From a virus, in IMG/VR virus record IMGVR_UViG_3300009165_000006: DNA of 64,000 nt; one strand, given 5' to 3'. A program made the position numbers and the translations under genes. The number at the start of each line of letters is the position of its first letter. Position 1 is the stretch's first letter. Below the pieces are notes generated by a model. The model did no database searches. It was given only the letters and a program-made list of their open reading frames with translations, and had not been told where the DNA came from. This document shows, one piece after another, positions 7,298 through 55,973 of this stretch.

Positions 7298-7392
7298 GTT
7301 CAGATTTTCAGTTGAACATCAGACCGCTTGTACGTAATAGGAGTTGGCCTGACCAGGTTTTGAGCAAAGCTCAGTCATTCGAGGAGAAGAGT

Positions 7393-7737
7393 ATGAGGAA
7401 TCGAGTATCGCGTGGGTTTACCGTTATAGAGGTGATCATCTGCGTGGCTCTGCTTGGGGTTTTCGCGGTCTTAATTGGGATGCAAGTCATCACGTGGTCA
7501 TCATCTCAGGGCTTGGCCGAAGAAGAAGCCCGAAACTACGCCGCGAAGATGGATAGGACTCTCAAGGGCGTCTCCTGTATGAACCGTGACATAGACGGGG
7601 ATGGTTACGTCTCGTGTACTCTCAACGTGGTCGAGAAAGACGGCTCCCTCTCCCGGGTTCCGATCGAATGCGCGGCCAAATGGACCTACAACAACGAAGG
7701 TTGCAAGGAAGCCTTCGTGAATGTGCTACGAAAGTAA
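7393..7737 (+). CDS. prepilin-type N-terminal cleavage/methylation domain protein (type IV pilin / pseudopilin-like)
   Basis: ATG at 7393 after GAGGAGAAGAGT. N-terminus MRNRVSRG/FTVIEVIICVALLGVFAVLIGM matches the class III signal (G|FT.IE plus hydrophobic helix). Confidence 0.65.
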   Translation: MRNRVSRGFTVIEVIICVALLGVFAVLIGMQVITWSSSQGLAEEEARNYAAKMDRTLKGVSCMNRDIDGDGYVSCTLNVVEKDGSLSRVPIECAAKWTYNNEGCKEAFVNVLRK

Positions 7738-7740
7738 CCC

Positions 7741-8190
7741 ATGGTCGTCAAGTTGGGTTCGGAAAGTGGGTTTGACCTCATCCAAGTACCGGTTTCACGT
7801 CTTTCTGAGATGTGTGACGTTACTCACGGGATAACCCCATGGGGTTATCCGATAAACCCCGAAGAGATTCGGGAAGCTGTAAGTGCCGGTCGAGTAGCGC
7901 CTAAACCCAGAAGGGGATTCCCCGGGTGGCCTACAGAGAGGAAGCGGCAGTATCACATCAAACGCGTGGCCTACTTGGTAATGAACGGATGGTATGATCC
8001 GATTGAGATCGACGTAGGGGTACCAAGCCTGAATTGTTACATTGACTGGCCTATCGTGGACGGAAATCACAGGTTCTATGCGTCTATCGTCCGAGAAGAT
8101 CCTTTCATTCTAGCGGTAATCAGCGGTGAGCTTGACTATGCTGAGGAGGTTCTTGGAGTTAAGTCAAGGGCGACATTGTCGCCCTTGTAG
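7741..8190 (+). CDS. ParB N-terminal/sulfiredoxin-fold nuclease-like protein
   Basis: 149-aa ORF containing WPIVDGNHRFYA (DG.HR motif typical of ParB-like nuclease domains). Confidence 0.45.
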   Translation: MVVKLGSESGFDLIQVPVSRLSEMCDVTHGITPWGYPINPEEIREAVSAGRVAPKPRRGFPGWPTERKRQYHIKRVAYLVMNGWYDPIEIDVGVPSLNCYIDWPIVDGNHRFYASIVREDPFILAVISGELDYAEEVLGVKSRATLSPL

Positions 8191-8272
8191 GTCCCTCATG
8201 CTCTAGGACGGTCGGACTTAAGTTCAAACTTCGATATTTATTGGCATCCCAGTTGAGTTTTGAGTAGGCTTA

Positions 8273-8282
8273 CGCGTAATAC
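8273..8282 (+). promoter_or_regulatory. CGCGTAATAC start-proximal motif
   Basis: CGCGTAATAC, then a 5-nt spacer (TGGGC), then the ATG at 8288. Member of the TGCGTAATA(G/C) motif family. Confidence 0.45.
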
Positions 8283-8287
8283 TGGGC

Positions 8288-9223
8288 ATGGCAAGCAACA
8301 TCAACTACAAGCAACTTCGGGATGGCACGTGGGGAGTTCAGGGGCGCAATCTTGTGACAGGCCGGACCGTGACGGTCACGAAGAAATCTGGTGAGACCAA
8401 GCAAGAAATAGTGGGAGAGATTGTTTGGAAAGGTACTGACGGCTTCTGCTACGCTAGAATTGCCGAACAGGGTGTTTCCTCTAAGTCTTCGACCCGTAGC
8501 AGCTCTACTCGAGGTAGTTCTACTCGTACCACTTCTACCCGGCGAAGCAGCCGGAAAAGCGGTAAGAAAGAGGGCGCCCAAGAGGGCAAATACTCATCAT
8601 CCCGCGAGGGCGATACGGGGGACGAGATCGGGAGAGTCTGCTTCCTCCGTGCGGGTGGAAACCGCATTCCAGTTGTTGTAGTGGGGTGGCAGACGGGCTA
8701 CTGTAGTGAAGATGGTCTCTCCTTTGGGTTACCAATGGATGATGGGTACTACACGGTTTCGTATTACAGAGACGCAACCGAGGAAGAGGCTACTGCACTT
8801 GCCTCCAAGGAAGCTGCTGCGAAGGCTGCGAAGGACTCAGCGGCCCAACAGGCCAAGGATGCTCGGATGGCAGCGGAGACGGCTGCTCGGGCACCTCTCG
8901 CAGGCCTTACGCGAAGTGATAGCTTGAGCACCCCTGCAGGTACCAAGACCTCGGTTGGTACCTACAAGAGTGAGCACGGGTGGGACATTAGCATCACCCG
9001 GGTCGAGATGGGTGATGCTAATGTGGTCTACATCGAGAGTGCCTACGGCTTCGACGACAGCCGAGAGTACCTCTGGGGCACTCCCGAGGTTCTTGCCACC
9101 CTCTACGAAGCCAGACTTGCTGAGCGTTCAATCAGCAAAGAAGAGGCTCAAGAGTACTTGTCCAAGTACTCGGGTTGCTATGGAGCAGACATCTACAAGT
9201 ACGTAGTCGCGCGAGGTGAGTGA
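8288..9223 (+). CDS. hypothetical protein with Ser/Thr/Arg-rich linker
   Basis: 311-aa ORF. Low-complexity SSTRSSSTRGSSTRTTSTRRSSRKS segment between two globular-looking halves. Confidence 0.7.
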   Translation: MASNINYKQLRDGTWGVQGRNLVTGRTVTVTKKSGETKQEIVGEIVWKGTDGFCYARIAEQGVSSKSSTRSSSTRGSSTRTTSTRRSSRKSGKKEGAQEGKYSSSREGDTGDEIGRVCFLRAGGNRIPVVVVGWQTGYCSEDGLSFGLPMDDGYYTVSYYRDATEEEATALASKEAAAKAAKDSAAQQAKDARMAAETAARAPLAGLTRSDSLSTPAGTKTSVGTYKSEHGWDISITRVEMGDANVVYIESAYGFDDSREYLWGTPEVLATLYEARLAERSISKEEAQEYLSKYSGCYGADIYKYVVARGE

Positions 9224-9275
9224 GAAGCTGCTCGATGCCTTGACTCCGCCCAGCACAACGGTGTAGCTGACTTCC

Positions 9276-12317: not shown

Positions 12318-12327
12318 GTATTACGCA
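12318..12327 (-). promoter_or_regulatory. TGCGTAATAC start-proximal motif
   Basis: Minus strand reads TGCGTAATAC AGAGT ATG (ATG at 12312). Confidence 0.45.
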
Positions 12328-14104: not shown

Positions 14105-15250
14105 ATGAAACCTACAGTAGCAGTTATCTCCTTAGTTCTCCAAGCCACAGCCCTAACAGCCTATGCACATCCGGCTTGTCACGGACAGTTACAGGGGGCC
14201 ATCAACACTCCGGCAGATGATTCCGTACATTGCCCGACGGTATGTGATCCGACTGGATGCCAATGTGATCCCACTCAGCTCTCCCCCTATAGCCTCGAGT
14301 GGTGGTACTGGACGGGCCACCTGAAGACACTGAGTGGTCGCAAGTTTGGGTTCTCGAACATCGTCTACACGGGGATCGACCTCGTCACCTACCTTCCACT
14401 CACATGGTCGGACAGTACGGTGGCCGACCTTCGTAACGGCACGTTCAACTATGGTGGACGAGAAGCTATTCTCGGGTTGCCGACGAAGGTCCCCAACGGA
14501 TTCGAGTTCACTTTCCCTCACTCGCAGGTCTTTGGGGGTAATGGAACTGATGCGATCCACTCAGTGATCGTCGACCAAACCTCGGGCAAGCGGTACGAAG
14601 TGGATCTGGCGATTCACTCGGTGAAAAAGCCGGTTCAACAGCGTGCCGATGGACTCGTTTACTACTATTCCCGCGAGCAAATGCTTGCAGTCGGAGCCAT
14701 CGTTATCGATGGGATACCCCAGATCGTAACGGGAACCGTCTGGTTCGACCATCAGTTTGGGGATCAACGAGACGCTTACCAGAATGTCACCACGTGGCAG
14801 TGGTTCGGGATCCAACTCTCGGGCAACCGGCAGCTCGTCCTCTACGACGTCCAGGTGAACGAGAACGAGACTCGCCCCGAGTACGCCTCCGGAGTCATCG
14901 AAGGGACCTTCACGGATCCCAACTGCGGAGTCACTCACCTGACCCGGAACGACTTCACCATCACGCCCCTTGGTAGCTGGCAGTCGGCTTGGATGCCCCC
15001 AGGCTGGGGTGACTTCCAGTGCATCTACCCGATGGGGTGGAGCATCCAAGTCCCCAGCAAGGGGATTGACATCACCGTGGATCCCTACTTCGATGCCCAG
15101 GAGATCATCGCCCCCTTGCCGGCTCCTGAAGGCACATTGACCGTTGGTGACCGGTATTGGGAAGGGGATGCCGCGGTGACGGGTAGCGATACCGGTGAGG
15201 CCTTCGTGGAACTCACCGGCTTCTGCCCATTTGCCCCAGGATCTAACTAG
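14105..15250 (+). CDS. secreted AttH/CrtC-like (lipocalin-like) protein
   Basis: GGAAGGAA RBS. Signal peptide MKPTVAVISLVLQATALTAYA. Blocks EWWYWTGHL, VWFDHQFG and WQWFGIQL resemble the hydroxyneurosporene synthase/AttH family. Confidence 0.6.
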   Translation: MKPTVAVISLVLQATALTAYAHPACHGQLQGAINTPADDSVHCPTVCDPTGCQCDPTQLSPYSLEWWYWTGHLKTLSGRKFGFSNIVYTGIDLVTYLPLTWSDSTVADLRNGTFNYGGREAILGLPTKVPNGFEFTFPHSQVFGGNGTDAIHSVIVDQTSGKRYEVDLAIHSVKKPVQQRADGLVYYYSREQMLAVGAIVIDGIPQIVTGTVWFDHQFGDQRDAYQNVTTWQWFGIQLSGNRQLVLYDVQVNENETRPEYASGVIEGTFTDPNCGVTHLTRNDFTITPLGSWQSAWMPPGWGDFQCIYPMGWSIQVPSKGIDITVDPYFDAQEIIAPLPAPEGTLTVGDRYWEGDAAVTGSDTGEAFVELTGFCPFAPGSN

Positions 15251-15668: not shown

Positions 15669-15705
15669 CTGAGGCTCTTAGGCGAGGCAGAGGTTAAGCT
15701 CACGG

Positions 15706-15912
15706 TCAGCTCTTCATGAAATTCGCTGGGCTATCTTTCCGGACTCGATGCTTGATCTCGTCCCGCACCTTGCATCCCTCGGCTGACTTCGTAGGCTCAA
15801 GTGGGGTAGCAGGGGCTCCACAGTTCTTGCACTTGCCGCCCTTCACATAGAGCGGGTTGTGACAGTAGTGGCACTTCGGCCTTCTCTTCGGCGTGTGCTT
15901 CATAACTACCAC
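15706..15912 (-). CDS. zinc-ribbon protein (paralog of 17357..17551)
   Basis: KCHYCHNPLYVKGGKCKNCGAPATPLEP versus KCYYCHRPLYLSDGKCTNCGAPATPLDP in the paralog. GTG start overlaps the upstream stop (GTGGTAG). Alternative ATG at 15903. Confidence 0.6.
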   Translation of the reverse strand: MVVMKHTPKRRPKCHYCHNPLYVKGGKCKNCGAPATPLEPTKSAEGCKVRDEIKHRVRKDSPANFMKS

Positions 15913-16167
15913 CGGACATCCTCCGGGAGCCTCCCATAGGCCAGCTCACAGGCTTCCTCGTACTTCGTAGCCCGCTCAACCTCACCTTCGAGCCGGAGGC
16001 TCATGGCACACGACTTGTTGATGGCGTAGCAAGCTAGCGTCTCCATGATCCGGCGAGCGCCCTTCCGCTTCCCAGTGACAACGACGGCTTCCTTCTGGGT
16101 GGCGATGTGCCACCCAGAAGTCTCGGAGTTCTTCCCGGCTCATTGCGTCGAAGTTTGGGATTTCCAT
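15906..16167 (-). pseudogene. frameshifted paralog of 17545..17811
   Basis: MEIPNFDAMSREELRDFW matches MELTNLEAMTQDELRAFW. After FW, homology (WHIATQKEAVVVTGKRKGARRIMETLACYAINKSC...LPEDVRW*) continues in the +1 frame, and 5 nt are missing relative to the paralog. Confidence 0.6.
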
Positions 16168-16172
16168 GCCTT

Positions 16173-16182
16173 CTATTACGCA
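16173..16182 (-). promoter_or_regulatory. TGCGTAATAG start-proximal motif
   Basis: Minus strand reads TGCGTAATAG AAGGC ATG (ATG at 16167). Confidence 0.45.
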
Positions 16183-16382
16183 CCACCAGCAGAGAATTCA
16201 ACTGAATCTTTGCTACCCACCTCTCCCCATGGTATCATCTGGCTATGGATACTCGACGAAAAGACCACATCCAAAGAGGAGGTCGTGTATTCCTTCCCCT
16301 TTGGCGTATGAGACAGATTAAGTTCGAAGAGGCTGTACTCAATTCGATAGCCAAGCGCGAGGGATTGACTGGTAGTCTTCAT
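16176..16382 (-). CDS. possible ThiS/MoaD-like ubiquitin-fold protein (C-terminal ..AGGA)
   Basis: 68-aa ORF divergent from the E1-like gene. Its C-terminus IPWGEVGSKDSVEFSAGGA* resembles the ThiS/MoaD ending (..gD.V.f....GG). The stop lies inside the downstream TGCGTAATAG motif. It competes with + ORF 16245..16520. Confidence 0.3.
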   Translation of the reverse strand: MKTTSQSLALGYRIEYSLFELNLSHTPKGKEYTTSSLDVVFSSSIHSQMIPWGEVGSKDSVEFSAGGA

Positions 16383-16598
16383 CACATGGATTGCCGGTGC
16401 GGCTCTATCTACTGCAAGGCGACGCCCTACCTCTCCACGACTAAAGACGCTCGACCCGAAGGATGCACTGAGGAGCCCAAGATGCGGAGCGGTTTCCAGC
16501 CCGGTCGACCTAAGTACTAGGAGTCAAGAGAACGACAAGCGAGTGTTCAATACTGAGGACAAGCAAGTAATCCCCCTCCATCTTTTGTGCTCTGATCT

Positions 16599-17345
16599 AT
16601 GCCTCAGCTAACAATTGAACAGCAAATCCGATATGAGCGTCACGTTAGGCTGCCTGAAGTCAAGGAAGCTGGGCAGATCAAACTGCTTCAGAGCAAGGTC
16701 CTGCTCATAGGGGCGGGCGGGTTAGGATCCCCAGTAGCGCTCTACTTAGCCGCCGCAGGGGTCGGTACCTTGGGGGTCGTGGACTTTGATTCGGTTAGCC
16801 TCTCGAACCTCCAGAGGCAGATCATCCACTCCACCGTCGGAAAACTCAAGGTCCCAAGTGTCACAGAGGCGGTGACCCGGTTGACCCCTGACGTATCCAC
16901 CGTTGAGTATGTCGGTCGCGTGGATGCCTCGACCATAGATCAGATCTTCGAGATTGGTTGGCACGTGGTCATTGACGCCGTGGATAACCTGGAAACTCGG
17001 TACCTCATCAACGAAGCTTGCGTAAAACGTAAGCTCCCATGGATCCACGGGGCCGTTTTCTCGTATGAGGGTCAAGTGACAACCTTCACCCGGGGCGGCC
17101 CCTGCTATCGATGCCTCTATCCAGATGTGCCCCCCAAAGGGGCTGACAAGCCCGGTGGCGTCCTTGGAGTTGTCCCAGGCGTGATAGGTACTATCCAAGC
17201 AACAGAGGCGCTCAAGGTCATCCTGGGGCTCGGACAGACGTTGGAAGGGACGATGCTCAACTACAACGCTCTCTACATGTCCTTCGACCGAATGCCGCTT
17301 GGAGCTCGCAACCCAAACTGCTCAGTTTGCTCGATGACTTACTGA
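16599..17345 (+). CDS. ThiF/MoeB/HesA-family E1-like adenylyltransferase
   Basis: RY.RH..L...G...Q..L..S.VLLIGAGGLGSPVALYLAAAGVG (nucleotide-binding loop), SNLQRQ, Zn motifs CYRC and CSVC. No Cys in the crossover loop (DVPPKGADKPGGVLG). Confidence 0.9.
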   Translation: MPQLTIEQQIRYERHVRLPEVKEAGQIKLLQSKVLLIGAGGLGSPVALYLAAAGVGTLGVVDFDSVSLSNLQRQIIHSTVGKLKVPSVTEAVTRLTPDVSTVEYVGRVDASTIDQIFEIGWHVVIDAVDNLETRYLINEACVKRKLPWIHGAVFSYEGQVTTFTRGGPCYRCLYPDVPPKGADKPGGVLGVVPGVIGTIQATEALKVILGLGQTLEGTMLNYNALYMSFDRMPLGARNPNCSVCSMTY

Positions 17346-17356
17346 GCATAGGTTCA

Positions 17357-17551
17357 TCACTTGAAAAACATGGCTGGTGTGTCCCGACGAAGAGGGTGCT
17401 TGATTTCGTCCTGCACCTTGGGATCTTCAGTGGGCTTCAGCGGGTCAAGTGGAGTAGCGGGGGCACCACAGTTCGTGCACTTGCCATCGCTCAAGTAAAG
17501 CGGACGGTGGCAGTAGTAGCACTTGGGGCGGCCCGTAAGATTACCTACCAC
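17357..17551 (-). CDS. zinc-ribbon protein (paralog of 15706..15912)
   Basis: Track ORF 17357..17590. I prefer the GTG at 17551 overlapping the upstream stop (GTGGTAG), as in the paralog. Confidence 0.6.
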   Translation of the reverse strand: MVGNLTGRPKCYYCHRPLYLSDGKCTNCGAPATPLDPLKPTEDPKVQDEIKHPLRRDTPAMFFK

Positions 17552-17811
17552 CGGACGTCCTCCGGGAGCTTCTCGTACTGGATCTCGCAAGCCTGCTCAT
17601 AGGTCAGGGCAGGTTCAATCTGGCCTTCGAGACGAAGGCCGATAGTACACGATTTGTTGATGGCGTAGCAGGCTAGACTCTCCATGACCTTGCGAGCGTC
17701 TTTCCGGTCACCAAGGAAGAGGCCGGCCTCTTCCTTGGTGGTAACGTGCCACTTCGACCAAAAAGCTCGAAGCTCGTCTTGAGTCATGGCCTCGAGGTTT
17801 GTGAGTTCCAT
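17545..17811 (-). CDS. hypothetical protein (intact copy of duplicated module)
   Basis: 88-aa ORF preceded by the TGCGTAATAG motif. Paralog of 15906..16167. Confidence 0.65.
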   Translation of the reverse strand: MELTNLEAMTQDELRAFWSKWHVTTKEEAGLFLGDRKDARKVMESLACYAINKSCTIGLRLEGQIEPALTYEQACEIQYEKLPEDVRW

Positions 17812-17816
17812 ACGTT

Positions 17817-17826
17817 CTATTACGCA
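17817..17826 (-). promoter_or_regulatory. TGCGTAATAG start-proximal motif
   Basis: Minus strand reads TGCGTAATAG AACGT ATG (ATG at 17811). Confidence 0.45.
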
Positions 17827-17887
17827 CGATTGGGGTGAAACTCAACAAGCAATTGTCTGATTCCTAGGATTGGTGTAGGGTTGAAGC

Positions 17888-18202
17888 ATGGAATGTATTG
17901 ACCAGTCAACTTTGAACTCTGAACCAGATCTCGGAACTATCGCGCAGTTGAATCACGAGGGGGATACGACGTACACGTGGGACAAAACGAATGAAAACGA
18001 GTGCCGGGCCGCCGAGGCACACTTCAACCTGTTGAAGTCGAAAGGATTTCTCACCTTTAAGGTGAAACGTAGTAGACGTAAAAGTCCGGAAGAAGCATTT
18101 GATCCGAAAGCAGGCAAGTACGTCTACGTGGCCCCCGAAATAGCGACCACCCTTGACCCCAAGGCGGACTACGTAGTGACACCACAGATGCGAGGCGGGT
18201 GA
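17888..18202 (+). CDS. hypothetical protein
   Basis: 104-aa ORF, ATG start. Confidence 0.55.
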   Translation: MECIDQSTLNSEPDLGTIAQLNHEGDTTYTWDKTNENECRAAEAHFNLLKSKGFLTFKVKRSRRKSPEEAFDPKAGKYVYVAPEIATTLDPKADYVVTPQMRGG

Positions 18203-18264: not shown

Positions 18265-18612
18265 GTGCATCTCCTCGTAGGCGTTCTTGATCCAGGTGAG
18301 ATCCCCATTTATGAGTTAGAAGGGGCAGAGCATAGCTATCAGTGGGATGGGGCCTCCAATTTTGCCAATGGAGGAATCTGGGACATCAGGCCCTTAACAG
18401 TCAACCATAGAGTCATAATCAGCTTAGGGCTTGATGAACCACTGACCGTTCTCGTTGCCCAACTTTCAGATCGCCTTCAAGCGTTACCTCAACCACTGGA
18501 TGGTTCCTTGATTCTGTCTATCAGGTCCGTCTATTCTGTTGATGGGGTTACTAATTGGGAATCAGGTCCAGATCAGCATGGGATCTGGATCGTGGGGGTT
18601 TGGCCTTTGTAG
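18265..18612 (+). CDS. hypothetical protein
   Basis: 115-aa ORF with non-ATG start. Weak. Confidence 0.35.
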   Translation: MHLLVGVLDPGEIPIYELEGAEHSYQWDGASNFANGGIWDIRPLTVNHRVIISLGLDEPLTVLVAQLSDRLQALPQPLDGSLILSIRSVYSVDGVTNWESGPDQHGIWIVGVWPL

Positions 18613-19220
18613 AACGAGCCTACACGGGCATAGATCTCGATGGGCAAGATCCAAGCTATTTGATTGAGCAGACGTGCTTGCTTATCGCCGGCAAGGATTA
18701 CGATAGAAACATACCTAGACTTGAAGCTTGGAGGGTTCGTCTCGAAGAAGAAAGGCGCGAGAGGAAAGCCAAGCGTGATAGTGTTGAAGCAAAAGCTCGA
18801 GCTATCCTAATGGCCCATCTCGATGAAACCCAAGTGTCTGAGTTCGAATCCTCTGGATCCTTCCACGTCCTTGGTGCCGATGGTTACACCTATCTCATCA
18901 CCTCCAGGGAACAACACAATGTGTTTCGAATCGAGGAGGGACGTCGAACCTTCGAGTACTGCATCGTGACAAGGGATTTCGTACCCCTTCAGGATCAGAT
19001 GCTGACTCAAATGCTTCTCTTGACGACCCATCCTGCGATGTTTCATCAAATCGCGAACACCTGGGAAATTAGAGAAGATGGGACCCGCATCCGCATAGCA
19101 GGGCGACTAGTTGACGTTCTTGAGAACCCAGCCGCCCAAGTCGGCTGGGTTCTCAAATCTCCTTACCGGCAAGTATCTCTCTGTACATCGGGCCTAGCAC
19201 TTTTGAGACACTCCCCTTGA
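18555..19220 (+). CDS. hypothetical protein (start uncertain)
   Basis: 221-aa ORF with TTG start. The 3' end runs through the 19120-19156 stem-loop and overlaps the ligase gene end. Confidence 0.45.
   Translation: MGIRSRSAWDLDRGGLAFVERAYTGIDLDGQDPSYLIEQTCLLIAGKDYDRNIPRLEAWRVRLEEERRERKAKRDSVEAKARAILMAHLDETQVSEFESSGSFHVLGADGYTYLITSREQHNVFRIEEGRRTFEYCIVTRDFVPLQDQMLTQMLLLTTHPAMFHQIANTWEIREDGTRIRIAGRLVDVLENPAAQVGWVLKSPYRQVSLCTSGLALLRHSP
19120..19156. terminator. perfect 15-bp stem-loop at the convergent gene junction
   Basis: TTGAGAACCCAGCCG (19120-19134), loop CCCAAGT, CGGCTGGGTTCTCAA (19142-19156). It includes the ligase stop codon. No U-tract on either strand. Confidence 0.4.
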
Positions 19221-21561: not shown

Positions 21562-22451
21562 TGAACCAAGGTTCGCTCGAAGGCCTCGTTGTTGAGCACA
21601 ATCATGATGGAGGGTGGATCCGGAGCGTTCGCTTGACGAGTTGACTCATCGTACTCGTGGCAACCCCACTCACCCTTCTCCATGTAAGGTTGAACTCTTA
21701 CCCATGTTCCGATACTTGGATCAATGGCTGCAGCAGCCGCTATTGTGTCGTGAAGGGCCTTCCCCTCTGGGCGCTTTTTGAAGTAAAAAGCCATCCCTTC
21801 CTTGATGAGGTCAAGCCCAGCATGGGCTCCGGAAGGGATTCTCTCATTGACCATAGGACCCCAGAAGACACCGTGACAAACGTTCTTGGAAACCATCCGT
21901 CGAGTCCAGATAGGTGAGTTTTTACCCAGTAAACCGAGGGCTGCTTTCGAGTCGCCCCCAAGGTTGAAGGTCGGACAGGTGAGCTTGCCGGCGAACTTGG
22001 GTAGCCGGTGTTCGGGTGGGACGATGTTGTCTCCGGCGAAGCCACCCTGGCAAGTCCACGTACGGAAAAACGGCCACACCTCACTGCTAGCCTTCCAGAT
22101 GTTGGTGAGGGCCGCTCCAGTGATTAGGTGGGTGGTTGGAAAGTCCAGTAGTACCTGCTTAATGACCTCAGTGGCGCTTCCCTGGGGCTGACAGGGGGAG
22201 ATCTTCCCAAGCCAATCATAGTGGAACTGGGACACCTTAGAAGTTTGCTTCTTGAGGCTCCCAATTCCGATAGGCACGTCCGTCCGCCCAAGACGATCGA
22301 GGACATGACGAACTATCCCGACCTGGTCGAAACCTCCTGGATGGATCGTAGCCCCAACGAGTTTGGCTCGGGGATGAGTAGCAAGGAGCGCTAGAGTGAA
22401 CACGTCATCTGGGTCACTCGTTTCCATGTCGAACAGATATTCTTGAGTCAC
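21558..22451 (-). CDS. nucleoside hydrolase-like (IU-NH family) protein
   Basis: N-terminal DMETSDPDDVFTLALL resembles the D.D...DD motif. ALHDTIAAAAAIDPSI resembles the family's LHD..A...a.dP block. GTG start. Confidence 0.6.
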   Translation of the reverse strand: MTQEYLFDMETSDPDDVFTLALLATHPRAKLVGATIHPGGFDQVGIVRHVLDRLGRTDVPIGIGSLKKQTSKVSQFHYDWLGKISPCQPQGSATEVIKQVLLDFPTTHLITGAALTNIWKASSEVWPFFRTWTCQGGFAGDNIVPPEHRLPKFAGKLTCPTFNLGGDSKAALGLLGKNSPIWTRRMVSKNVCHGVFWGPMVNERIPSGAHAGLDLIKEGMAFYFKKRPEGKALHDTIAAAAAIDPSIGTWVRVQPYMEKGEWGCHEYDESTRQANAPDPPSIMIVLNNEAFERTLVH

Positions 22452-22514
22452 TTGAAATCAATCTCAGGTTATAGGAGTGGCTGCCACCTAAATTTCGATG
22501 GTGTATCAGCTACC

Positions 22515-23456
22515 ATGCCCTCTTCGTTGAGTAAAGCCCAAGCTTGTCTGCTGTGTCATGTGGTCGGAGACTCCCTTGGGAGCCTCGTAGAGTTCGAGTC
22601 CGAGGAGACCATCCTTCAGGAGCACCAAGGAGAAAAAGTGCGCTACCTCGCTGATGGGGGCACCTGGGAGACCTTGGCGGGGCAAGGCACAGACGATTCC
22701 GAAATGGCCATCACCCTAGCTAGGACTCTCATTCACCATGGTTTTTACAGCTCAACCATTATGCGGAGTATGTATTGCTATTGGCTCAATAGCCAACCAT
22801 TTGACGTTGGCAGGACCACTCAAAATGGACTCCTGGATATGCCTGACTTCCACAGCCAAGCCAATGGGGCTTTGATGCGTGTCGCCCCCTTGGGGATCTT
22901 TGGAGCGAAGAAGAAGGACTGGAGAAAGACCATGATCTGGGCGATGGAGGATGCCCTTATTACGCACCCAAATCAAATATGCTTACAAATCAATGCACTT
23001 TATGTATCGATGATCGATCAAGCAATCGGAAGTGATGCAAGCCCAGATCAACTCTACGGTGCGCTGGCCGCAACAGCAGTGGATATGGAAGCCCATCCAG
23101 TTATCCTCGAAGCTATCGACCGAGCTAGAACTGCCCCACCGGAAAACTACATGGTGAATATGGGTTGGGTTGTCCTCGCTTTCCAGAATGCGCTCTATCA
23201 ACTACTACACGCCCCGTCATTGACTGAAGGAATTGTCGATACCGTCAATCGCGGAGGTGATACCGATACCAACGGAGCAATTGCCGGTGCTCTGCTTGGG
23301 GCTGTTTACGGGATGGAGCAAGTCCCCAAGGATTGGATCGATGGAGTAACCCAATGTTGCCCATCGGTGACCAACCCCTACTCTAGAAAGCCACGTACAG
23401 GCTTCTTTTGGACTAATGATGTGCTAGAAGTAGCCAAAAAACTACTTGATAGTTGA
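22515..23456 (+). CDS. ADP-ribosylglycohydrolase family protein
   Basis: GDSLGSLVEF, GTDDSEMAITLA and GGDTDTNGAIAGALLGAVYG are classic DraG/ARH motifs. ATG at 22515 within track ORF 22443..23456. Confidence 0.85.
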   Translation: MPSSLSKAQACLLCHVVGDSLGSLVEFESEETILQEHQGEKVRYLADGGTWETLAGQGTDDSEMAITLARTLIHHGFYSSTIMRSMYCYWLNSQPFDVGRTTQNGLLDMPDFHSQANGALMRVAPLGIFGAKKKDWRKTMIWAMEDALITHPNQICLQINALYVSMIDQAIGSDASPDQLYGALAATAVDMEAHPVILEAIDRARTAPPENYMVNMGWVVLAFQNALYQLLHAPSLTEGIVDTVNRGGDTDTNGAIAGALLGAVYGMEQVPKDWIDGVTQCCPSVTNPYSRKPRTGFFWTNDVLEVAKKLLDS

Positions 23457-27291: not shown

Positions 27292-27997
27292 GATTACCAC
27301 CAACTGGTATCACTATCAGTTAACGGTAAAAGAGCCTCAAGATTACGTAGCATTTCAGGTTTTGGAGGGCGGACTTGAGAGTTTGGAGGGCGGACTTGAC
27401 CGCAAACTAATTGTGGTCTTTAGTACCATTAGGCTAAGTAATGACGGGGAGACCTTATACCATGGGGTCAACCTCAGAGAAGACCTGGAGAACTTCCATG
27501 AGAAGATATTCGATGAAGCCAAGCGCCAGAACGATTGGGTTAAGCAGAAGATACAACGGGAAGTTGAGAGCGCCGAAGCAATCCAAAGTTGCAATCGGAT
27601 CCTTCAACAACTAAAAAACGACTTCCCAACCTATGCCAAGTCCATATTGATTGGGCTGTCGTCTCCTGAGGGGCCTAAGTTCAGCTTGGGGCTCCACGGA
27701 CTTACGGAAGATCGGATCCGTCAAATTCTAAACCTGATCGGGTCACCTTCGATGTACGCAATAATTGGAATTTACTCTGATAAACCTACCATTTGGGGTA
27801 TCGGAGGCACTCCAGATGAGGCCCTAGCTGATGCTCAGAGTAACGGCTTCCAGATATCCAACTGGAGCATCATCCCAATCACCGACGATCAAGTTCGAAT
27901 GATCACCAAGAAGGGGGCCGAGGGTACGGATCCTAGAGCCATTGGAATCGAGCTAGCTGAAAAAGATTGGTTGAACTTAGGATACCGTCGCGCGTAA
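27197..27997 (+). CDS. hypothetical protein
   Basis: 266-aa ORF, ATG start. Confidence 0.65.
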   Translation: MTYYSDPVKDSEAQSIVTQIQARLAEVGLKSEITTNWYHYQLTVKEPQDYVAFQVLEGGLESLEGGLDRKLIVVFSTIRLSNDGETLYHGVNLREDLENFHEKIFDEAKRQNDWVKQKIQREVESAEAIQSCNRILQQLKNDFPTYAKSILIGLSSPEGPKFSLGLHGLTEDRIRQILNLIGSPSMYAIIGIYSDKPTIWGIGGTPDEALADAQSNGFQISNWSIIPITDDQVRMITKKGAEGTDPRAIGIELAEKDWLNLGYRRA

Positions 27998-28169
27998 TAG
28001 GTCCCATACCACTTCACGAACGCATTGCGAAAGCTCTAGGTTGGACGGTCAATGAGACCCAGAGCTTCTCGTTGGCTTCGTTAAGGGATCTGGTTCGTCC
28101 AATCTCTTTGAAGTTGGCCGCTGAGATCACTCAAGCCATCGAGACTGGATCCTACCTTGTAAGCTAATC

Positions 28170-30669: not shown

Positions 30670-33301
30670 ATGGCCGAAGGTAAGAAGGAACTAGTACTAG
30701 TAAACAACGAGTTTGCATGGGTGAAGGATCTGTCAGGGGGTATGATTTGTGTATTGCGGTCCCCACAAGGAGCCGCTATCCGTAGACTCTGTGATTGTGA
30801 TCCAGAATGCGAATAGAGAGTTCGTTCCGATCGGTGGGGACCAACTGAAGGGGCAGACTTTCGTCCAAGCTCTGGAATCCCAGTACATCATCCTACACAA
30901 TCCCGAGACTCCCGGTGCTCGACTGATGACTCGAGGGAAGAACGAAGCCATAGCTCTCCAAACCGGTAAGTGCATCGTCAAACGTGGTCCATGCGAGTTC
31001 CCTCTTTGGCCTGGTCAGCAAGCGGAGGTTGTTGACGGCCATCGCATGACTTCGGACCAGTTCCTTCGAATTCGAGTAGTGGGGGAAGTGGCTCCTGACG
31101 ACGTCAAGGCTCTTCAGTTGTTACTCAAGGAGGACTGGCTCACCTCAAAGCCCATGCCTCAGCCCGTCAAAGCCGAGGAGCCTGCGGGTCTTTTCATCAT
31201 GGCCAGTGCATCCAAGGATCCGGAACCCGTAGAGGATGAGGTCAAGCTACCCGAGCTAACCATCGGCTCTGAGTGGATTGTCCGCGGAATGAAGACCAAG
31301 TTCTTCATTCCTCCTACTGGGGTTACGGTCCTCCCTGCTAATGACCGTGTGACCATAGGGGAAGACCCTTATGTGATGAATGGCGTTCCGCTCGATGCTG
31401 ATGAGTACGTCATTCTGAAGAACCGCAGTGGTCGAATCAGCTACGTTCTAGGCCCAACAACAGTCACCCCCTGCGAAGACCAAGAGTTTCAAGAATCTAA
31501 CAGTGGGTCTCACAACCCAGTCTTCAAGGCCCAAAGTATCGACGAAAACAGCGGTGTTCTACTCCGAACCCTGTTCCCGATGACTCGCAAGACGATCCAA
31601 GAACGTATGGGCTTGGATGTTCAAGTCCAATTTACTCCAATTGCCAACCCCAATGAGGACGGAGAGGAAAGCGATAGGAGAACACCTTCCTCTGATGAGG
31701 TATTACCTCCAGGGACTCAACTTGTCGTTTGGCGGGAGAAGCGATTGGTCTTCCCGGCGGATGGTATCCAGATCATCAAGAAGTTTGAGGCCATCCACAT
31801 TCTAGCGGGTACTGCTCGGTACGTGAAGAACTCGCTGACGGGTAGAACTCGAATCGTGCAAGGGGAATGTCTATACCTAGCTGATCCCCGATGTGAGGAG
31901 TTCACCAGCCGTCGTCTGACCAAAGAGATGATCGGACTCTGGCTTCCGGGGCAAACCTTCGAGACTTACAACCCCGAACTGGTTCCCTGCATTACCGTTC
32001 CTCAGGGTACGGCCGCCATGATCCTCAAGCGAGGAATTGGCTCAAACACTCGCAAGACCATCATTGGTTATGCCACTTACTTTCTGGAGTGGGACGAGAC
32101 CCTCTGCGAGATGAAGCTCTCGACCTCGCGGGGTGGAGAAGCCAAGACCTATCAGAATGCAATCAAGATCTGCTACCTCTGGATGAAGTCCAATCGAATT
32201 AACGATGCTCTACTGGATGGACGTACCCGGGAGGATTGTGAGTTCTCGATCCAATACACCCTGACGGTTGACTTCGAGGAGGAGCACAATGACTCCTGGT
32301 TCAACGTCGATGACTATGTGTTTCTCGTCTGTGAAGAGGTTCGCTCACGTCTACGCGGAGGTCTCCTTGCTACCTCCATCAGCGAATTGTCCACAAACTA
32401 CGTCGAGATCATCCGAGACATAGTTCTCGGCATGAAGCCCAGTGTACCGCTTAAGAGTGAAGACCCACTAGCCAGGCTAGAAGCCTATACCATACCTCAC
32501 CGCCCAGGAATCGAGTTCCCGAGGTTCGGAGCTCGACTGGTCGACATCAACATCAATGCCTTCAGTATTCGAGATCCAGAACTGCAGGGGCAGCTCCGCC
32601 AACTTCAGATGGCGGGGATCAACGAGTCTGTTCGAACTCGAACAGCTCAGATCATCTTAGATGGGGCTCGAATTCGAGCGGAGATTGAGAGGAACCAAGC
32701 CACCCTTGCCACGGAGACCACCAAGTTCAAGAAGGGTCAGGAGCTTATAAACACTGAGGTGGCTGAAGAGACCACTCGTAAGAAAGGTCAGCAAGAGCAT
32801 CAAACGGCCCTTGCTTACTTGGAAGCGGAAAAGGCTCGGTTATTGGCTGAAGCAAGTAAGAACCTTGAGGTAGCTGCGAAGAATGACGAGCTATCGAAAT
32901 CTCAGCTAACTACTCAAGCTACTCTTGCAGATCTTGGACTCAAGATCACCGAGCTCAAGAAGCTGACTGATCTTGCAGTTCTCGAAGTAACTAGCAAGAA
33001 TATGGAGCTCAAACGTCAAGACGAAACCGAAAAGGTGAAGGCAACTGCCGAGGCCGCTGCTATCGTCAACAACTCGGTCTTACCGACTCTCGGGGCACAC
33101 CTGGCGGAGATTCGAGACTCCCTCGTTGCAGACAAGCTGGTTAGTGCCTTCGGTGCAGCGGCAAGCTTCCGAGGCGTGGAAGTCGTCGAGCTTGCTGCTC
33201 AGACCCTCAGCTCGTTACCCGGTTTGGGATCTGTTCTTGGTCGACTACGTCGGAATCCTTCACGGAATGAAGGCCAGGGTAGCCCTCAAGCGACTAGATA
33301 A
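30670..33301 (+). CDS. major vault protein (MVP)-like protein; N-terminal 26 codons in a different frame (+1 shift near 30746-30752)
   Basis: Track ORF 30749..33301 (GTG start). QYIILHNPE...CEFPLWPGQ parallels MVP [9 protein letters not shown]...DPFPLYPGE. The shoulder-like DDYVFLVCEEVRSRLRG and the long C-terminal coiled coil parallel the MVP shoulder and cap-helix. ATG 30670 ORF (MAEGKKELVLVNNEFAWVKDLSGGMI) aligns with the MVP N-terminus. Confidence 0.75.
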
Positions 33302-43648: not shown

Positions 43649-43658
43649 CTATTACGCA
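43649..43658 (-). promoter_or_regulatory. TGCGTAATAG start-proximal motif
   Basis: Minus strand reads TGCGTAATAG, then 11 nt, then ATG (43637). Confidence 0.4.
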
Positions 43659-45249: not shown

Positions 45250-45520
45250 TGAACCTCGATAAGAACTATCGCACGCCTTGACTCCAGTGACGAACTGTGA
45301 ACCGCTTCAACCACTCTTACGCGCGAGCTTGTCTGAATCTCAACTAAATTGAGTATAGCCTTCCAAAAGACCGTTCTGTGAAACTTATTCAAAGTTGCTC
45401 ATAGGAGAACTCCGATGTTCACTTCCTGCTTCAACGAGACATGACTCGTAGGCCGAAGGGTTCTCCTTCGTTCCGCCGCTAGAGGACTCTCCACAGGCTT
45501 TTTAGCGCCGAAGGCGCCTA
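45250..45520 (-). ncRNA. predicted omega RNA (reRNA) region of the TnpB element
   Basis: By analogy with IS200/605 TnpB loci, the guide RNA scaffold overlaps the tnpB 3' end and the right end. The 154-nt non-coding stretch after the stop contains the hairpin CTCAA-CTAAA-TTGAG (45339-45353). Boundaries are not determinable by eye. Confidence 0.35.
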
Positions 45521-46643
45521 GGTTCCTCGGGAACTCCGAGTACCTTTCCAAATTCTTCGCCGCATTCTCATCTCGATCATGAATAGCTCCACATCCTTCA
45601 CAAACCCACTCTCTCACAGAAAGAGCCAGCTGCGGCCGTTTAAGGCCGCAGCTGGTACATATCTTCGAGGATGGGAACCATCGATCAGCTACTTCTAGCT
45701 TAGATCCATACCAAGTGGTCTTGTAGGAAAGTAGCCTCTTACTTTCAAACCACCCTTGGTCCAAGATCGACCGAGAAAGGTGAGGATTCTTACTCATTCC
45801 ACGAATACCAAGGTCTTCCACAACGATGGCTGACTTGGTTTTCGCCAGCCCCGTTGTGAACTTATGAAGGAAATCCCTTCGAACGTTTGCTACTCGTGAG
45901 TGAATCCTCGCTAATCTTTGAGCTGATTTCCTCCTATTTGACGAACCCTTACGCTTCCTCGAATGAGAGCGTTGAGCCCTTCTTAACCGACTTAACGCTT
46001 GTTTCAATGGATTCGGGGCATGTATCTTCGTACAGGCCCCGTCCGAAGAGACCGTAGCGAAAGTAAGAATCCCTAGATCTACCCCAGCTTTTGGTCCTTG
46101 GATAGGAATAGGATCCGTCACGACCTCAACGGTATTGACGGATACGAACCATCGATCTGCTACCCTCGAAATCGTAGCTGAAAGGATCTCCCCACTAATC
46201 CTGCCGTTGATCTTCTCTTTGGTTCGAATAGTCCCAAGCCTAGGGAGCTTAATATACCTAGTTTGTGGCTCAATTGAACCATAGAGACGGAAGGAATCCT
46301 TTGATTTATGCTTCTTTTTGAACTTTGGGAAGCCAACTCCTTCTGATCTTCTGGACCAGAAAGCTTTGAAAGCTTTGTCAAGATCACGAAGAGCTTCCTG
46401 AGGGGCACACTTGGAAACCTCGTACATCCAAGGGAAGTCAGGGCCCTTGCGGGCGTTGAGGTCCCGATGTTCAGCGATGGCGTTGGTGAACTTCTCCTTA
46501 CCTTCTTGGGTTCGGAAGCGTTCGATCCTCCTTTGGAGGGACCAATTCCAAGCGAAGCGAGCCGTTCCGGCATGCTTCGCCAAGAACGTCCGAACCCGAT
46601 TGTTCGGATCTAACTCGAACTTATACGCCTTCCGAAGTTCCAT
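45399..46643 (-). CDS. tnpB: TnpB (IS200/IS605 OrfB-family RNA-guided endonuclease)
   Basis: MELRKAYKFELDPN...FLAKHAGTARFAWNW (OrfB N-terminus), RuvC-I GVDLGILTFAT, RuvC-II AIVVEDLGIRGM, Zn finger CTSCG...CEGCG, RuvC-III HDRDENAAKNL. Confidence 0.92.
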   Translation of the reverse strand: MELRKAYKFELDPNNRVRTFLAKHAGTARFAWNWSLQRRIERFRTQEGKEKFTNAIAEHRDLNARKGPDFPWMYEVSKCAPQEALRDLDKAFKAFWSRRSEGVGFPKFKKKHKSKDSFRLYGSIEPQTRYIKLPRLGTIRTKEKINGRISGEILSATISRVADRWFVSVNTVEVVTDPIPIQGPKAGVDLGILTFATVSSDGACTKIHAPNPLKQALSRLRRAQRSHSRKRKGSSNRRKSAQRLARIHSRVANVRRDFLHKFTTGLAKTKSAIVVEDLGIRGMSKNPHLSRSILDQGWFESKRLLSYKTTWYGSKLEVADRWFPSSKICTSCGLKRPQLALSVREWVCEGCGAIHDRDENAAKNLERYSEFPRNLGAFGAKKPVESPLAAERRRTLRPTSHVSLKQEVNIGVLL

Positions 46644-48949: not shown

Positions 48950-48959
48950 TTATTACGCA
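48950..48959 (-). promoter_or_regulatory. TGCGTAATAA start-proximal motif
   Basis: Minus strand reads TGCGTAATAA CACGGGGC ATG (ATG at 48941). Confidence 0.4.
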
Positions 48960-54240: not shown

Positions 54241-55701
54241 ATGAAAGCTCTAGCTTGCACGCTCGACACATGGGATGCCTTCGCAAGGGCCACCGGAAGA
54301 ACTGAGACCACCGGTCTCACGTTTCCCCTACGAATACTCGAGATTATCGGAAAGCCCTACGGACTAGAGCTCGAATACGCGAACAAACTGAACCGCCATG
54401 ACGCAGTGTTCATAGCGGTTCACGACTTTAGTTCGATGCTGTCCCTTGGAAAGGCGATGCAGAAGCTGAAATTGCCGCTACTTGCCAAAGACCGCGACCG
54501 AAGTCACCCGCTCGTATGGATGGGCGGACAAGGTACACGCAATCCGCTACCTATTGCCGATATTGCTGACTTGATAGTGCTTGGGGATGCAGAGCTCTCG
54601 CTGCCTCAATTACTCCAAATATGGGAGCGAAATGGGAACAGTAGAGAGTTCCTGGTGGGAGCGTCTACTGTCTCTGGGGTATTCGTTCCTTCGATCCACA
54701 ACGAAAATGAGGTGACCCTGAAAATGGGTTGGTCACCGGATATACGAACTTCACTTCAAAGCAGAAGCCTACCAATGGAACAGCATGCCAGAATCGAGCT
54801 CTCGCGTGGATGCAAGAGCAAGTGCTCATTCTGCGGACTCGGATGGATGGGTCCAGTTCGACATAACACCTTGGACGACGTACGGGATGCTATCCGAGGA
54901 GTGCCTTCGGTCCACCTGCAGGCTTGCGATGCCGAAGCTTACCCGGACATCGTTCGGTTGCGTGAGTGGATGCGCGAGAGAGGAATCAAAGACACCGGGT
55001 GTACCTCACGTCTCGATTCTAATTACGATGCTAGGAGCGAATTTCTATTCGACAAGTTGTTCAATTTCGGAATCGAGGCTGTGACCGAGCGTGTCCGCCG
55101 CAAAATCGGCAAGGCCAGACTAACGAACGACTTCATCGTTGAGGCTATGTGCGGGCTATACGAGAGACAGAAAACGCGGAAGGGTGAAGCCTGTGAGAAG
55201 ACCAATTGGCACATGATCTCTGGACTTCCGGGGGAGTTGGTATCTGAAACCGCGGAACTGGCGCAGACAATCCGAAGGCTCGATGCGACAATGCTGGAAC
55301 GGAGAATCACCGGGCAGCTAACGATCCGATGGCAACCGTTACTACCCTGTCCTGGGACACCACTGCAGTGGTGTCCCATTGGGCCGGATTGCGAGCCGTG
55401 GAGTAAGGCCTTGGCCAGAAACATCCGCAAAACGTACTGTCTGAAGCTAGAACATGGTTCCGGGAGACAGGAACGAAAGCACGCCCTGACCTGTATACTG
55501 ATGCGGTCAGGGCGTGTGGGGGCAAAGCTGATCGCACTTGAGTCAAAGTCTGCGGTTACCCCAGTTGCCGCGGTCGAGCTTACCGGGACGACTACCGGTA
55601 AGCTCGACCTTAGTGGTCCGCTTCCATGGGATTTCGTGCATGGTTACTACCCGCGAGGGGTGCTCGAAAAGGCCTACAAAAAGACCATACAATGCACGTA
55701 G
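54241..55701 (+). CDS. radical SAM enzyme with N-terminal B12-binding-like domain
   Basis: IELSRGCKSKCSFCGLGW gives CX3CX2C at 54811-54834 (aa 191-198). N-terminal VWMGGQGTRNP...DLIVLGDAELSLPQLL resembles the class B (cobalamin-domain) rSAM fold. The start abuts the Cas5-like stop. Confidence 0.8.
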   Translation: MKALACTLDTWDAFARATGRTETTGLTFPLRILEIIGKPYGLELEYANKLNRHDAVFIAVHDFSSMLSLGKAMQKLKLPLLAKDRDRSHPLVWMGGQGTRNPLPIADIADLIVLGDAELSLPQLLQIWERNGNSREFLVGASTVSGVFVPSIHNENEVTLKMGWSPDIRTSLQSRSLPMEQHARIELSRGCKSKCSFCGLGWMGPVRHNTLDDVRDAIRGVPSVHLQACDAEAYPDIVRLREWMRERGIKDTGCTSRLDSNYDARSEFLFDKLFNFGIEAVTERVRRKIGKARLTNDFIVEAMCGLYERQKTRKGEACEKTNWHMISGLPGELVSETAELAQTIRRLDATMLERRITGQLTIRWQPLLPCPGTPLQWCPIGPDCEPWSKALARNIRKTYCLKLEHGSGRQERKHALTCILMRSGRVGAKLIALESKSAVTPVAAVELTGTTTGKLDLSGPLPWDFVHGYYPRGVLEKAYKKTIQCT

Positions 55702-55963: not shown

Positions 55964-55973
55964 CTATTACGCA
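55964..55973 (-). promoter_or_regulatory. TGCGTAATAG start-proximal motif
   Basis: Minus strand reads TGCGTAATAG AGGGT ATG (ATG at 55958). Confidence 0.45.

Follow-up and report, generated by a model that had tools for sequence, protein, structure and literature searches.

A candidate phage-borne E1/ubiquitin-like protein locus with a GG-terminal beta-grasp family and a cysteine-bearing partner

We analyzed a 64,000-nt stretch of viral DNA (the window, from IMG/VR record IMGVR_UViG_3300009165_000006), in which positions 15706-17826 had been flagged in a first-pass annotation as carrying an E1-like adenylyltransferase with a candidate ubiquitin-like protein (Ubl). Our results suggest that the locus is a phage-borne E1/Ubl-type system, a reading to which we give a probability of roughly 0.55, composed of the E1-like enzyme (16599-17345), a small GG-terminal protein termed p104 (17888-18202), and a Cys-containing partner termed p300 (18265-19220). 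The first-pass annotation was borne out for the enzyme, for a duplicated module beside it, for a short deletion in that module and for a repeated sequence box, and failed for the 68-amino acid (aa) open reading frame (ORF) that it had proposed as the Ubl; its idea of a phage E1/Ubl pair appears reasonable, with p104 as the better partner. The syntenic relatives used for comparison were metagenomic contigs of 66-370 kb, several of them in IMG/VR (individual loci are given L numbers below), and no DNA match to the window was found among 50,697 deposited phage records. The features of the core locus were as follows.

16599-17345, plus strand: E1-like adenylyltransferase of the ThiF/MoeB family, 248 aa (Pfam, NCBIfam and PDB matches, alignment)
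16710-16727, 16806-16820 and 16974-16988: its GAGGLG, NLQRQ and DAVDN motifs, respectively
17103-17114 and 17319-17330: its zinc CxxC motifs
17139-17162: its crossover loop GADKPGGV, without Cys
17888-18202, plus strand: p104, 104 aa, ending ..YVVTPQMRGG directly before the stop codon (GG-terminal family member, predicted beta-grasp)
18265-18612, plus strand: p300, N-terminal part, cut off from the rest of the gene by loss of 1 nt near 18588-18592
18600-19220, plus strand: p300, C-terminal part with a conserved domain of ~100 aa (invariant Cys at 18960-18962, Asn of the HNV motif at 18918-18920)

The enzyme matched Pfam PF00899 over residues 12-243 and over the entire profile (1-238 of 238) with an E-value of 2.2e-72, and its score of 243.5 bits against a gathering cut-off of 28.1 places it within this superfamily. 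MoeB and ThiF were its best solved relatives, the closest structure being E. coli MoeB (1jw9, 4e-49). The GxGxxG, NLQRQ and DxxDN motifs and both CxxC pairs were all present, and G38/G40/G41/G43, N70, L71, R73, Q74, D126, D129, N130 and the four zinc Cys were invariant in 23 aligned homologues (alignment A5), which included 16 members of a viral clade (the window protein, P0002-P0015 and P0020) plus cellular relatives. The loop Cys of MoeB (C187) and of ThiF (C184) aligned to the Lys of GADKPGGV in the window protein. This Cys was missing from all 16 viral-clade enzymes, while the cellular relatives read PSCAEAGV, and the window enzyme thus does not have the form of a canonical thioester-forming E1. 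Each viral-clade enzyme was also about 250 aa long, with neither a rhodanese domain nor any other conserved loop nucleophile. The nearest cellular proteins were MoeB-type (~55% identity) and had a rhodanese domain at the N terminus. Neighbour-joining analysis placed the Cys-less enzymes in one group, except for P0020, whose position the tree did not settle. The window enzyme is part of a separate viral clade from which the rhodanese domain and the loop Cys have both been lost, and it is predicted to be capable of adenylation only, as had been proposed from the missing Cys.

The enzyme was also compared with more specific families. The top curated NCBIfam models were MoeB PRK08762, the archaeal SAMP-activating UbaA and MoeZ, and the enzyme scored below every equivalog cut-off (score/cut-off: PRK08762, 319/449; TIGR02355 moeB, 188/376; TIGR02356 thiF, 212/275; UbaA, 275/450), which leaves it outside MoeB and ThiF proper. 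No MoaD/MoaE or ThiS/ThiG was found among the 117 ORFs of the window (E <= 1e-5, the threshold for all family negatives in the window) or among the called genes of related loci. The ThiF domain begins at residue 12 with no N-terminal peptide-clamp domain in front of it, and matches to MccB spanned residues 26-173 only, so a MccB/PaaA-type enzyme is not indicated. The E1-E2 models of PADLOC aligned solely to residues ~14-177, the N-terminal portion of the adenylation domain that binds ATP, and with no E2 or peptidase family beside the enzyme in the window the locus does not have the makeup of a Bil, Bub or CBASS-Cap2 operon.

The gene for p104 begins 60 nt past the flagged span. All 12 aligned sequences of its subfamily, the window protein included, ended exactly at an invariant GG. 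The predicted topology was that of a beta-grasp, and the top structural neighbours of the model were all beta-grasp proteins; neighbours included MoaD, TtuB and Mth1743, with BilA among the weak ones. An exhaustive hidden Markov model (HMM) search of 1.84 billion 50%-identity representative proteins returned 667 matches to the wider family (E <= 0.001). Among the 150 matches listed most were 60-130 aa in length, 26 of the 28 members read ended in GG, and none of the 10 members scanned contained a Pfam family. With respect to known Ubl families (ThiS/MoaD/Urm1 or other), p104 itself had no match in Pfam, NCBIfam, PADLOC or PHROGs, and a PDB profile search returned no Ubl. Sequence searches with p104 and p300 against solved structures gave only spurious hits, among them designed PPR repeats and ribosomal protein L21. 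We consider p104 the better Ubl candidate than the 68-aa ORF, and its sequence relatives point to a large uncatalogued phage family.

Two further observations concern small GG-containing proteins. Copies of the GG family ending ..PPIRAG or ..PPIHAG were observed on Burkholderiales/Betaproteobacteria contigs of metagenome-assembled genomes (MAGs; L037, L038, L041, L042, L046, L047). A separate conserved protein of 77-83 aa, ending ..EIKGGVVKVW with an internal GG five residues from the end, was observed directly downstream of ThiF in several relatives (L002 6756-6989, L005 7134-7385, L007 7048-7299, L011 4305-4553; also L009), overlapping the ThiF stop codon in L002. This protein was rejected as a second Ubl candidate, being missing from the window, internally deleted in L004 (remnants at 1746-1822) and negative with the GG-family HMM.

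The p300 gene runs in one uninterrupted frame in L002, L007, L008 and L010, and in L012 it forms one ORF of 299 aa. The 1-nt loss that splits it in the window sits before a run of five G, and an identical split was observed in three independent assemblies (L065, L067, L068), so we do not regard it as an assembly error; the C-terminal part could be translated from a TTG at 18600. Across 18 diverse sequences of the C-terminal domain a Cys, a Pro, an Asp and a Gln were invariant, and the Asn of the HNV motif was present in 17. An AlphaFold2 (AF2) model of a full-length homologue had a predicted local distance difference test score (pLDDT) of 81 overall and >90 over most of this domain, which was predicted to consist of a helix, four strands with the Cys at the end of the fourth, and then helices. 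Comparison of the domain with three E2 sequences gave an hhalign probability of 0.3%, with no similarity of the UBC/HPN type. A Pfam scan of the 18 domains returned no UQ_con, RWD, Prok-E2 or any recurrent family, and tblastn of the domain against the deposited phage records returned no match.

The association of ThiF with the GG/p300 pair recurred at three levels of divergence, direct adjacency included. In L008 (a 370-kb contig, E1 58% identical to the window enzyme) ThiF, p104 and p300 followed directly on one another on the same strand, 7 and 3 nt apart, respectively. In L032 (304 kb, E1 57% identical) ThiF was followed by one gene, the GG gene and then p300, and in L034, a contig from a Synergistetes MAG, a gene with a p300-type C-domain was followed by another Cys-less ThiF. 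The distance between ThiF and p104 was <6.5 kb in the window, L002, L004, L007, L009 and L011. The two members of the pair were themselves closely linked, with a p300 C-domain gene after the GG gene at each of the 19 short-family viral loci and at 29 of 31 MAG loci (mostly Burkholderiales bins).

Two details of these distant loci were also recorded. The GG-family gene adjoining the ThiF locus of L032 (9145-9548) was split over two reading frames in the assembly. Directly upstream of the ThiF-p104-p300 cluster of L008 we observed a Peptidase_C39 gene and an AAA_33 kinase-like gene (7639-9238); Peptidase_C39 is a family of Cys proteases known to cut after a double Gly.

If the locus operates as an E1/Ubl-type system, a dimer of the enzyme would bind ATP and the extended ..RGG tail of p104 to form p104-Gly-AMP. 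Because the enzyme has no loop Cys, no other loop nucleophile and no rhodanese domain, it would form neither a Ubl thioester nor a persulfide of its own, and the acyl-adenylate would have to be attacked by a nucleophile outside the E1. The most likely such nucleophile would be the invariant Cys of p300, which would accept p104 as a thioester and transfer it to a target amine. Conjugation would then need two enzymes and would not pass through an E1~Ubl intermediate. ATP-dependent adenylation of the C-terminal Gly of p104 is the best-supported of these steps and is strongly suggested, while the role given to p300 and the existence of a conjugate are suggested only weakly.

Several observations weigh against this reading. 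Most GG/p300 pairs had no ThiF within 6 kb, and therefore the E1 is not an obligatory part of the module; the GG/p300 pair would be the old core and the E1 an addition in some large phages. L010 and L012 carried p104 with no ThiF within 10 kb, and L001 carried ThiF without p104. In the window p300 is split by the frameshift and could be impaired. Finally, no deconjugating peptidase (JAB or other) and no known E2 were found among the window ORFs.

Bub, Bil and CBASS-Cap2 resemble the window locus in joining an E1 adenylation domain to a Ubl-type substrate, and the E1 of the bacterial Bub pathway, which has no catalytic Cys (PMC11601596), is a precedent for the window enzyme. The window system differs from all three in being phage-encoded and in lacking an E2 domain, a JAB or serine peptidase and a conserved loop Tyr. 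Another beta-grasp protein that phages encode and whose C-terminal Gly is conserved is tail assembly protein I (TAPI) of lambda and T1, a Ubl that occurs together with protein K of the JAB/NlpC type (Iyer et al. 2006, PMC1779556). The TAPI Ubl, however, has a fused C-terminal domain and lies in a tail module with a JAB peptidase and no E1, whereas p104 has a true GG terminus, non-tail neighbours and an E1. The E2-independent, dual-function systems SAMP/UbaA, Thermus TtuB/TtuC and Urm1/Uba4 share with the window a minimal E1 and GG-terminal Ubl and no canonical E2/E3, and UbaA was the second-best NCBIfam match to the window enzyme (275 bits). UbaA and Uba4 nevertheless keep the catalytic Cys and/or the rhodanese domain, of which the window enzyme has neither, and these systems have no obligatory p300-like neighbour.

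We tentatively propose a wider interpretation, in which many uncultured phages and phage-like contigs (mostly Burkholderiales bins) may carry their own Ubl conjugation module. The module would combine a new GG-terminal beta-grasp modifier with the p300 C-domain as a new type of Cys transferase that would act like an E2 and might also resemble one in fold. A phage Cys-less E1 in jumbo phages, or elsewhere a hijacked host MoeB/ThiF, would supply the activation step, and the modifier would be attached to proteins of the host or the phage, for example as a counter to host defences or as a means of steering infection. To our knowledge, bacterial Ubl conjugation has so far been described as a weapon of the host against phages (Bil, CBASS-Cap2, Bub). 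If the module does conjugate proteins, the virus side of this arms race would also use Ubl chemistry, and the window enzyme would be the second E1, after that of Bub, to pass on a Ubl without a catalytic cysteine. We found no description of a phage E1/GG-Ubl/Cys-protein module in the literature, a search of limited coverage that is not proof of novelty. The E1/Ubl theme itself is already known, and what is undescribed is the phage modifier family (p104) and its partner (p300). If the reading is true, the locus would give phages an E1/Ubl module of their own, built on a new modifier family and a nearly constant new Cys partner.

The strongest competing explanation, possible and in our judgment doubtful, is that p104 is a sulfur carrier. 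Here adenylation of p104 by the E1 would be followed by its conversion to p104-COSH with persulfide from a host donor (IscS or a rhodanese), and the sulfur would serve a phage-directed thio-modification or cofactor. MoaD/MoeB, ThiS/ThiF and TtuB/TtuC transfer sulfur in this way, via a thiocarboxylate formed after adenylation, and E. coli-type MoeB functions without a rhodanese domain and is not known to need its loop Cys. The likeness to MoeB/MoaD, ThiF/ThiS and the rhodanese-MoeB PRK08762 extends to the adenylation domain, the zinc CxxC pairs and the homodimer-type architecture of ~250 aa, and with MoeB/MoaD and ThiF/ThiS the window locus also shares a presumed substrate that is a small GG-ending beta-grasp protein, with adenylation-only chemistry as in E. 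coli MoeB. The nearest families of the enzyme (MoeB, UbaA, MoeZ, with MoeB/ThiF among solved structures) favour a sulfur carrier, as do the GG-terminal beta-grasp, which is a hallmark of such carriers, its structural neighbours MoaD, TtuB and Mth1743, and the lack of a recognisable E2 or JAB among the window ORFs. The window, however, contained no MoaE, ThiG, TtuA/PP-loop enzyme, CysM, cysteine desulfurase or rhodanese. The viral clade has dropped precisely the rhodanese domain and Cys that serve the sulfur relay in cellular relatives, and the GG protein is constantly paired with p300, an uncharacterised protein that carries an invariant Cys and is not a known sulfur-insertion enzyme. The sequence of p104 shows no similarity to MoaD or ThiS, p104 has an internal insertion, and its gene has no MoaE, ThiG or other sulfur-acceptor enzyme nearby. 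A sulfur carrier would point to an unknown thio-modification by large phages; the three genes are small and directly testable in vitro under either reading.

It is unlikely that the enzyme is simply a captured host MoeB that aids molybdopterin or thiamine synthesis through host MoaD or ThiS, with p104 nearby by chance. The first-pass annotation had allowed that the E1 might group with housekeeping MoeB/ThiF acquired from a host, and this held to the extent that its nearest relatives are cellular MoeB/rhodanese proteins (~55% identity) and its top NCBIfam model is MoeB PRK08762; some deposited phage records also contain annotated ThiF/MoeB genes. Yet the enzyme differs from MoeB/ThiF in scoring under every equivalog cut-off (319 vs 449 and 188 vs 376 for the two MoeB models), in having neither rhodanese domain nor loop Cys, and in occurring in large uncultured phages. 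It lies in a stable viral clade with derived losses, and its association with the GG/p300 pair, sometimes by direct adjacency, recurs across the three divergence levels.

The last alternative, that the 68-aa minus-strand ORF is a ThiS/MoaD-like Ubl with a GGA end serving the E1, has in its favour the local likeness of ..EFSAGGA to a Ubl tail and nothing else, and is so improbable in view of the conservation of the opposite strand that we set it aside. The two overlapping ORFs concerned are:

16176-16385, minus strand: the flagged 68/69-aa ORF, not a gene; made up of two divergent promoters and the antisense of the 5' end of plus91
16245-16520, plus strand: plus91, a conserved 91-aa gene with a HHMDCRCGSIYC motif (homologues, frame-by-frame DNA comparison)

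The flagged frame was not conserved. It was broken by stop codons in the orthologous regions of L002 and L007, and its identity (55/81 with L002, 29/80 with L007) was not above that of non-coding frames; it had no family match in Pfam, PHROGs, NCBIfam or PADLOC, and the relatives have wholly different genes upstream of ThiF. The overlapping plus-strand ORF, which the first-pass annotation had named as the possible true gene, proved to be the conserved one. Its frame was open in all three genomes (the window, L002 and L007) with identities of 67/81 and 50/80, respectively, and homologues were found in L002 (82.7% over 81 aa), L007, L009, L010 and L011. Substitutions were enriched at third codon positions (18 of 36 against L002 and 41 of 83 against L007), and the plus strand of this region is, by these counts, under purifying selection.

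The GG(A) terminus of the 68-aa ORF likewise proved not to be a conserved feature. Its stop codon TAA (16176-16178) sits within a TGCGTAATAG box, with the final codons GGT GGT GCG TAA making up the box, and the GGA ending is thus promoter sequence. The right-hand TGCGTAATAG box is preceded by ..CCCAATCG, which codes for no GG. A promoter-like site at 16210-16238 ends 7 nt upstream of the plus91 ATG, so the ORF overlaps promoters as well as a conserved gene, and it plays no part in the proposed system. In the relatives plus91 lies between p104 and p300; in the window it has moved upstream of the E1 gene. The HHMDCRCGSIYC motif is a possible metal site, and plus91 may be an accessory component of the E1/Ubl system in this subclade.

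The E1 gene is flanked on both sides by the same minus-strand two-gene module, as first reported, with copies at 15706-16183 and 17357-17827 that were 71-76% identical in DNA.

17545-17811, minus strand: right 88-aa gene, intact, 60-69% identical to the 88-aa genes of L001-L005, L009 and L010
17357-17590, minus strand: right CxxC..CxxC zinc-ribbon gene, start probably a GTG overlapping the stop codon of the 88-aa gene
15906-16167, minus strand: left 88-aa copy, thrown out of frame by loss of 5 nt between 16113 and 16114, after ..DFW
15706-15912, minus strand: left zinc-ribbon gene, ORF intact, likely start ATG at 15900

The loss of 5 nt after ..DFW in the left copy was seen as described earlier, and the identical deletion in L066, an independent assembly from another sample (99.97% identical, gap-free), indicates that it is real. 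The junction at 16113/16114 falls within an arm of an inverted repeat whose 12-nt arms match perfectly (16092-16103 / 16109-16120), and at the matching place the right copy holds a 16-nt perfect palindrome (17709-17740). The deletion may have arisen by template switching at a quasi-palindrome.

The earlier description of a duplication with one decayed copy stood as to the two copies, and copying within this genome in recent times was not borne out. When window positions 15690-16600 were compared, DNA of the left module was 84% identical to the orthologous region of L001 (7623-7972) against 71% to the right copy, and plus91 beside it was 88% identical to L002 (8217-8449). The left module is therefore nearer to other phages than to the right copy, and the pair looks like the product of mosaic recombination among related phages and not of a recent internal duplication. 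The gene order in relatives is ThiF, zinc-ribbon (minus), 88 aa (minus), 76 aa (plus), p104 (plus), plus91 (plus) and p300 (plus); in the window plus91 accompanies the left module, and p104 and p300 accompany the right one. The zinc-ribbon and 88-aa proteins gave weak zinc-ribbon matches and otherwise no family match. As partners of the E1 they were rejected, being missing in L008 and L032, two loci in which ThiF, the GG gene and p300 adjoin one another or almost do; given this absence from distant loci, we regard them as neighbours inserted between the E1 and p104 in this subclade and not as core components.

An exact TGCGTAATAG box was present upstream of both 88-aa genes, in agreement with the earlier observation. 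Across the window, 11 boxes with at most one mismatch were found against 1.8 expected, a number reached in 0 of 100 shuffles. The box forms the -10 region of a sigma-70-like promoter, TTGA(A/G)T, 17 nt, TAATAG, that recurs in the window. A simple promoter scanner is blind to TAATAG promoters, as it accepts only second hexamers that end in T.

17817-17845, minus strand: promoter of the right 88-aa gene, -35 TTGAGT at 17840-17845, 17 nt, TAATAG in the TGCGTAATAG box at 17817-17826, ATG 5 nt beyond the box
16173-16201, minus strand: promoter of the left 88-aa copy, -35 TTGAAT at 16196-16201, TGCGTAATAG box at 16173-16182
12318-12327, 16173-16182, 17817-17826, 43649-43658, 48950-48959 and 55964-55973, minus strand: promoter sites with the TGCGTAATAG box
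7331-7340 and 27991-28000, plus strand: promoter sites of similar form

At the minus-strand sites an ATG followed 5-11 nt past the box, usually 5 nt, and this short spacing suggests leaderless or near-leaderless transcripts. The TGCGTAATAG promoters, judged by this layout, may mark a regulon of leaderless or near-leaderless phage genes.

The window as a whole had a GC content of ~50%, zero tRNA genes and ~117 candidate ORFs of at least 50 aa, most of them with no family assignment in profile searches. Recognisable genes included an RNA ligase, a CCA-adding enzyme, an ADP-ribosylglycohydrolase, a Tad2-like protein, a GmrSD_N domain, a radical SAM enzyme and TnpB, as is commonly seen in the accessory regions of large phages. 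Among these and other ORFs we observed an 850-aa protein with a major-vault-protein shoulder domain (30749-33301), a full IS605-type TnpB (45399-46643, minus strand) and a second TnpB-like ORF (115-1572); the ADP-ribosylglycohydrolase was located at 22443-23456, the radical SAM enzyme, with an N2 domain, at 54241-55701 and the CCA-adding enzyme at 58123-59478. Gene content upstream of ThiF was highly variable among the relatives, and in L001 (4897-5544, minus strand) and L002 (4866-5783, minus strand) a divergent gene with an FGE-sulfatase (formylglycine-generating enzyme-like) domain was present there. A 381-aa, secreted-looking protein with CrtC/AttH lipocalin-like domains (14105-15250 in the window) was kept upstream of the locus in relatives, with 87-89% aa identity.

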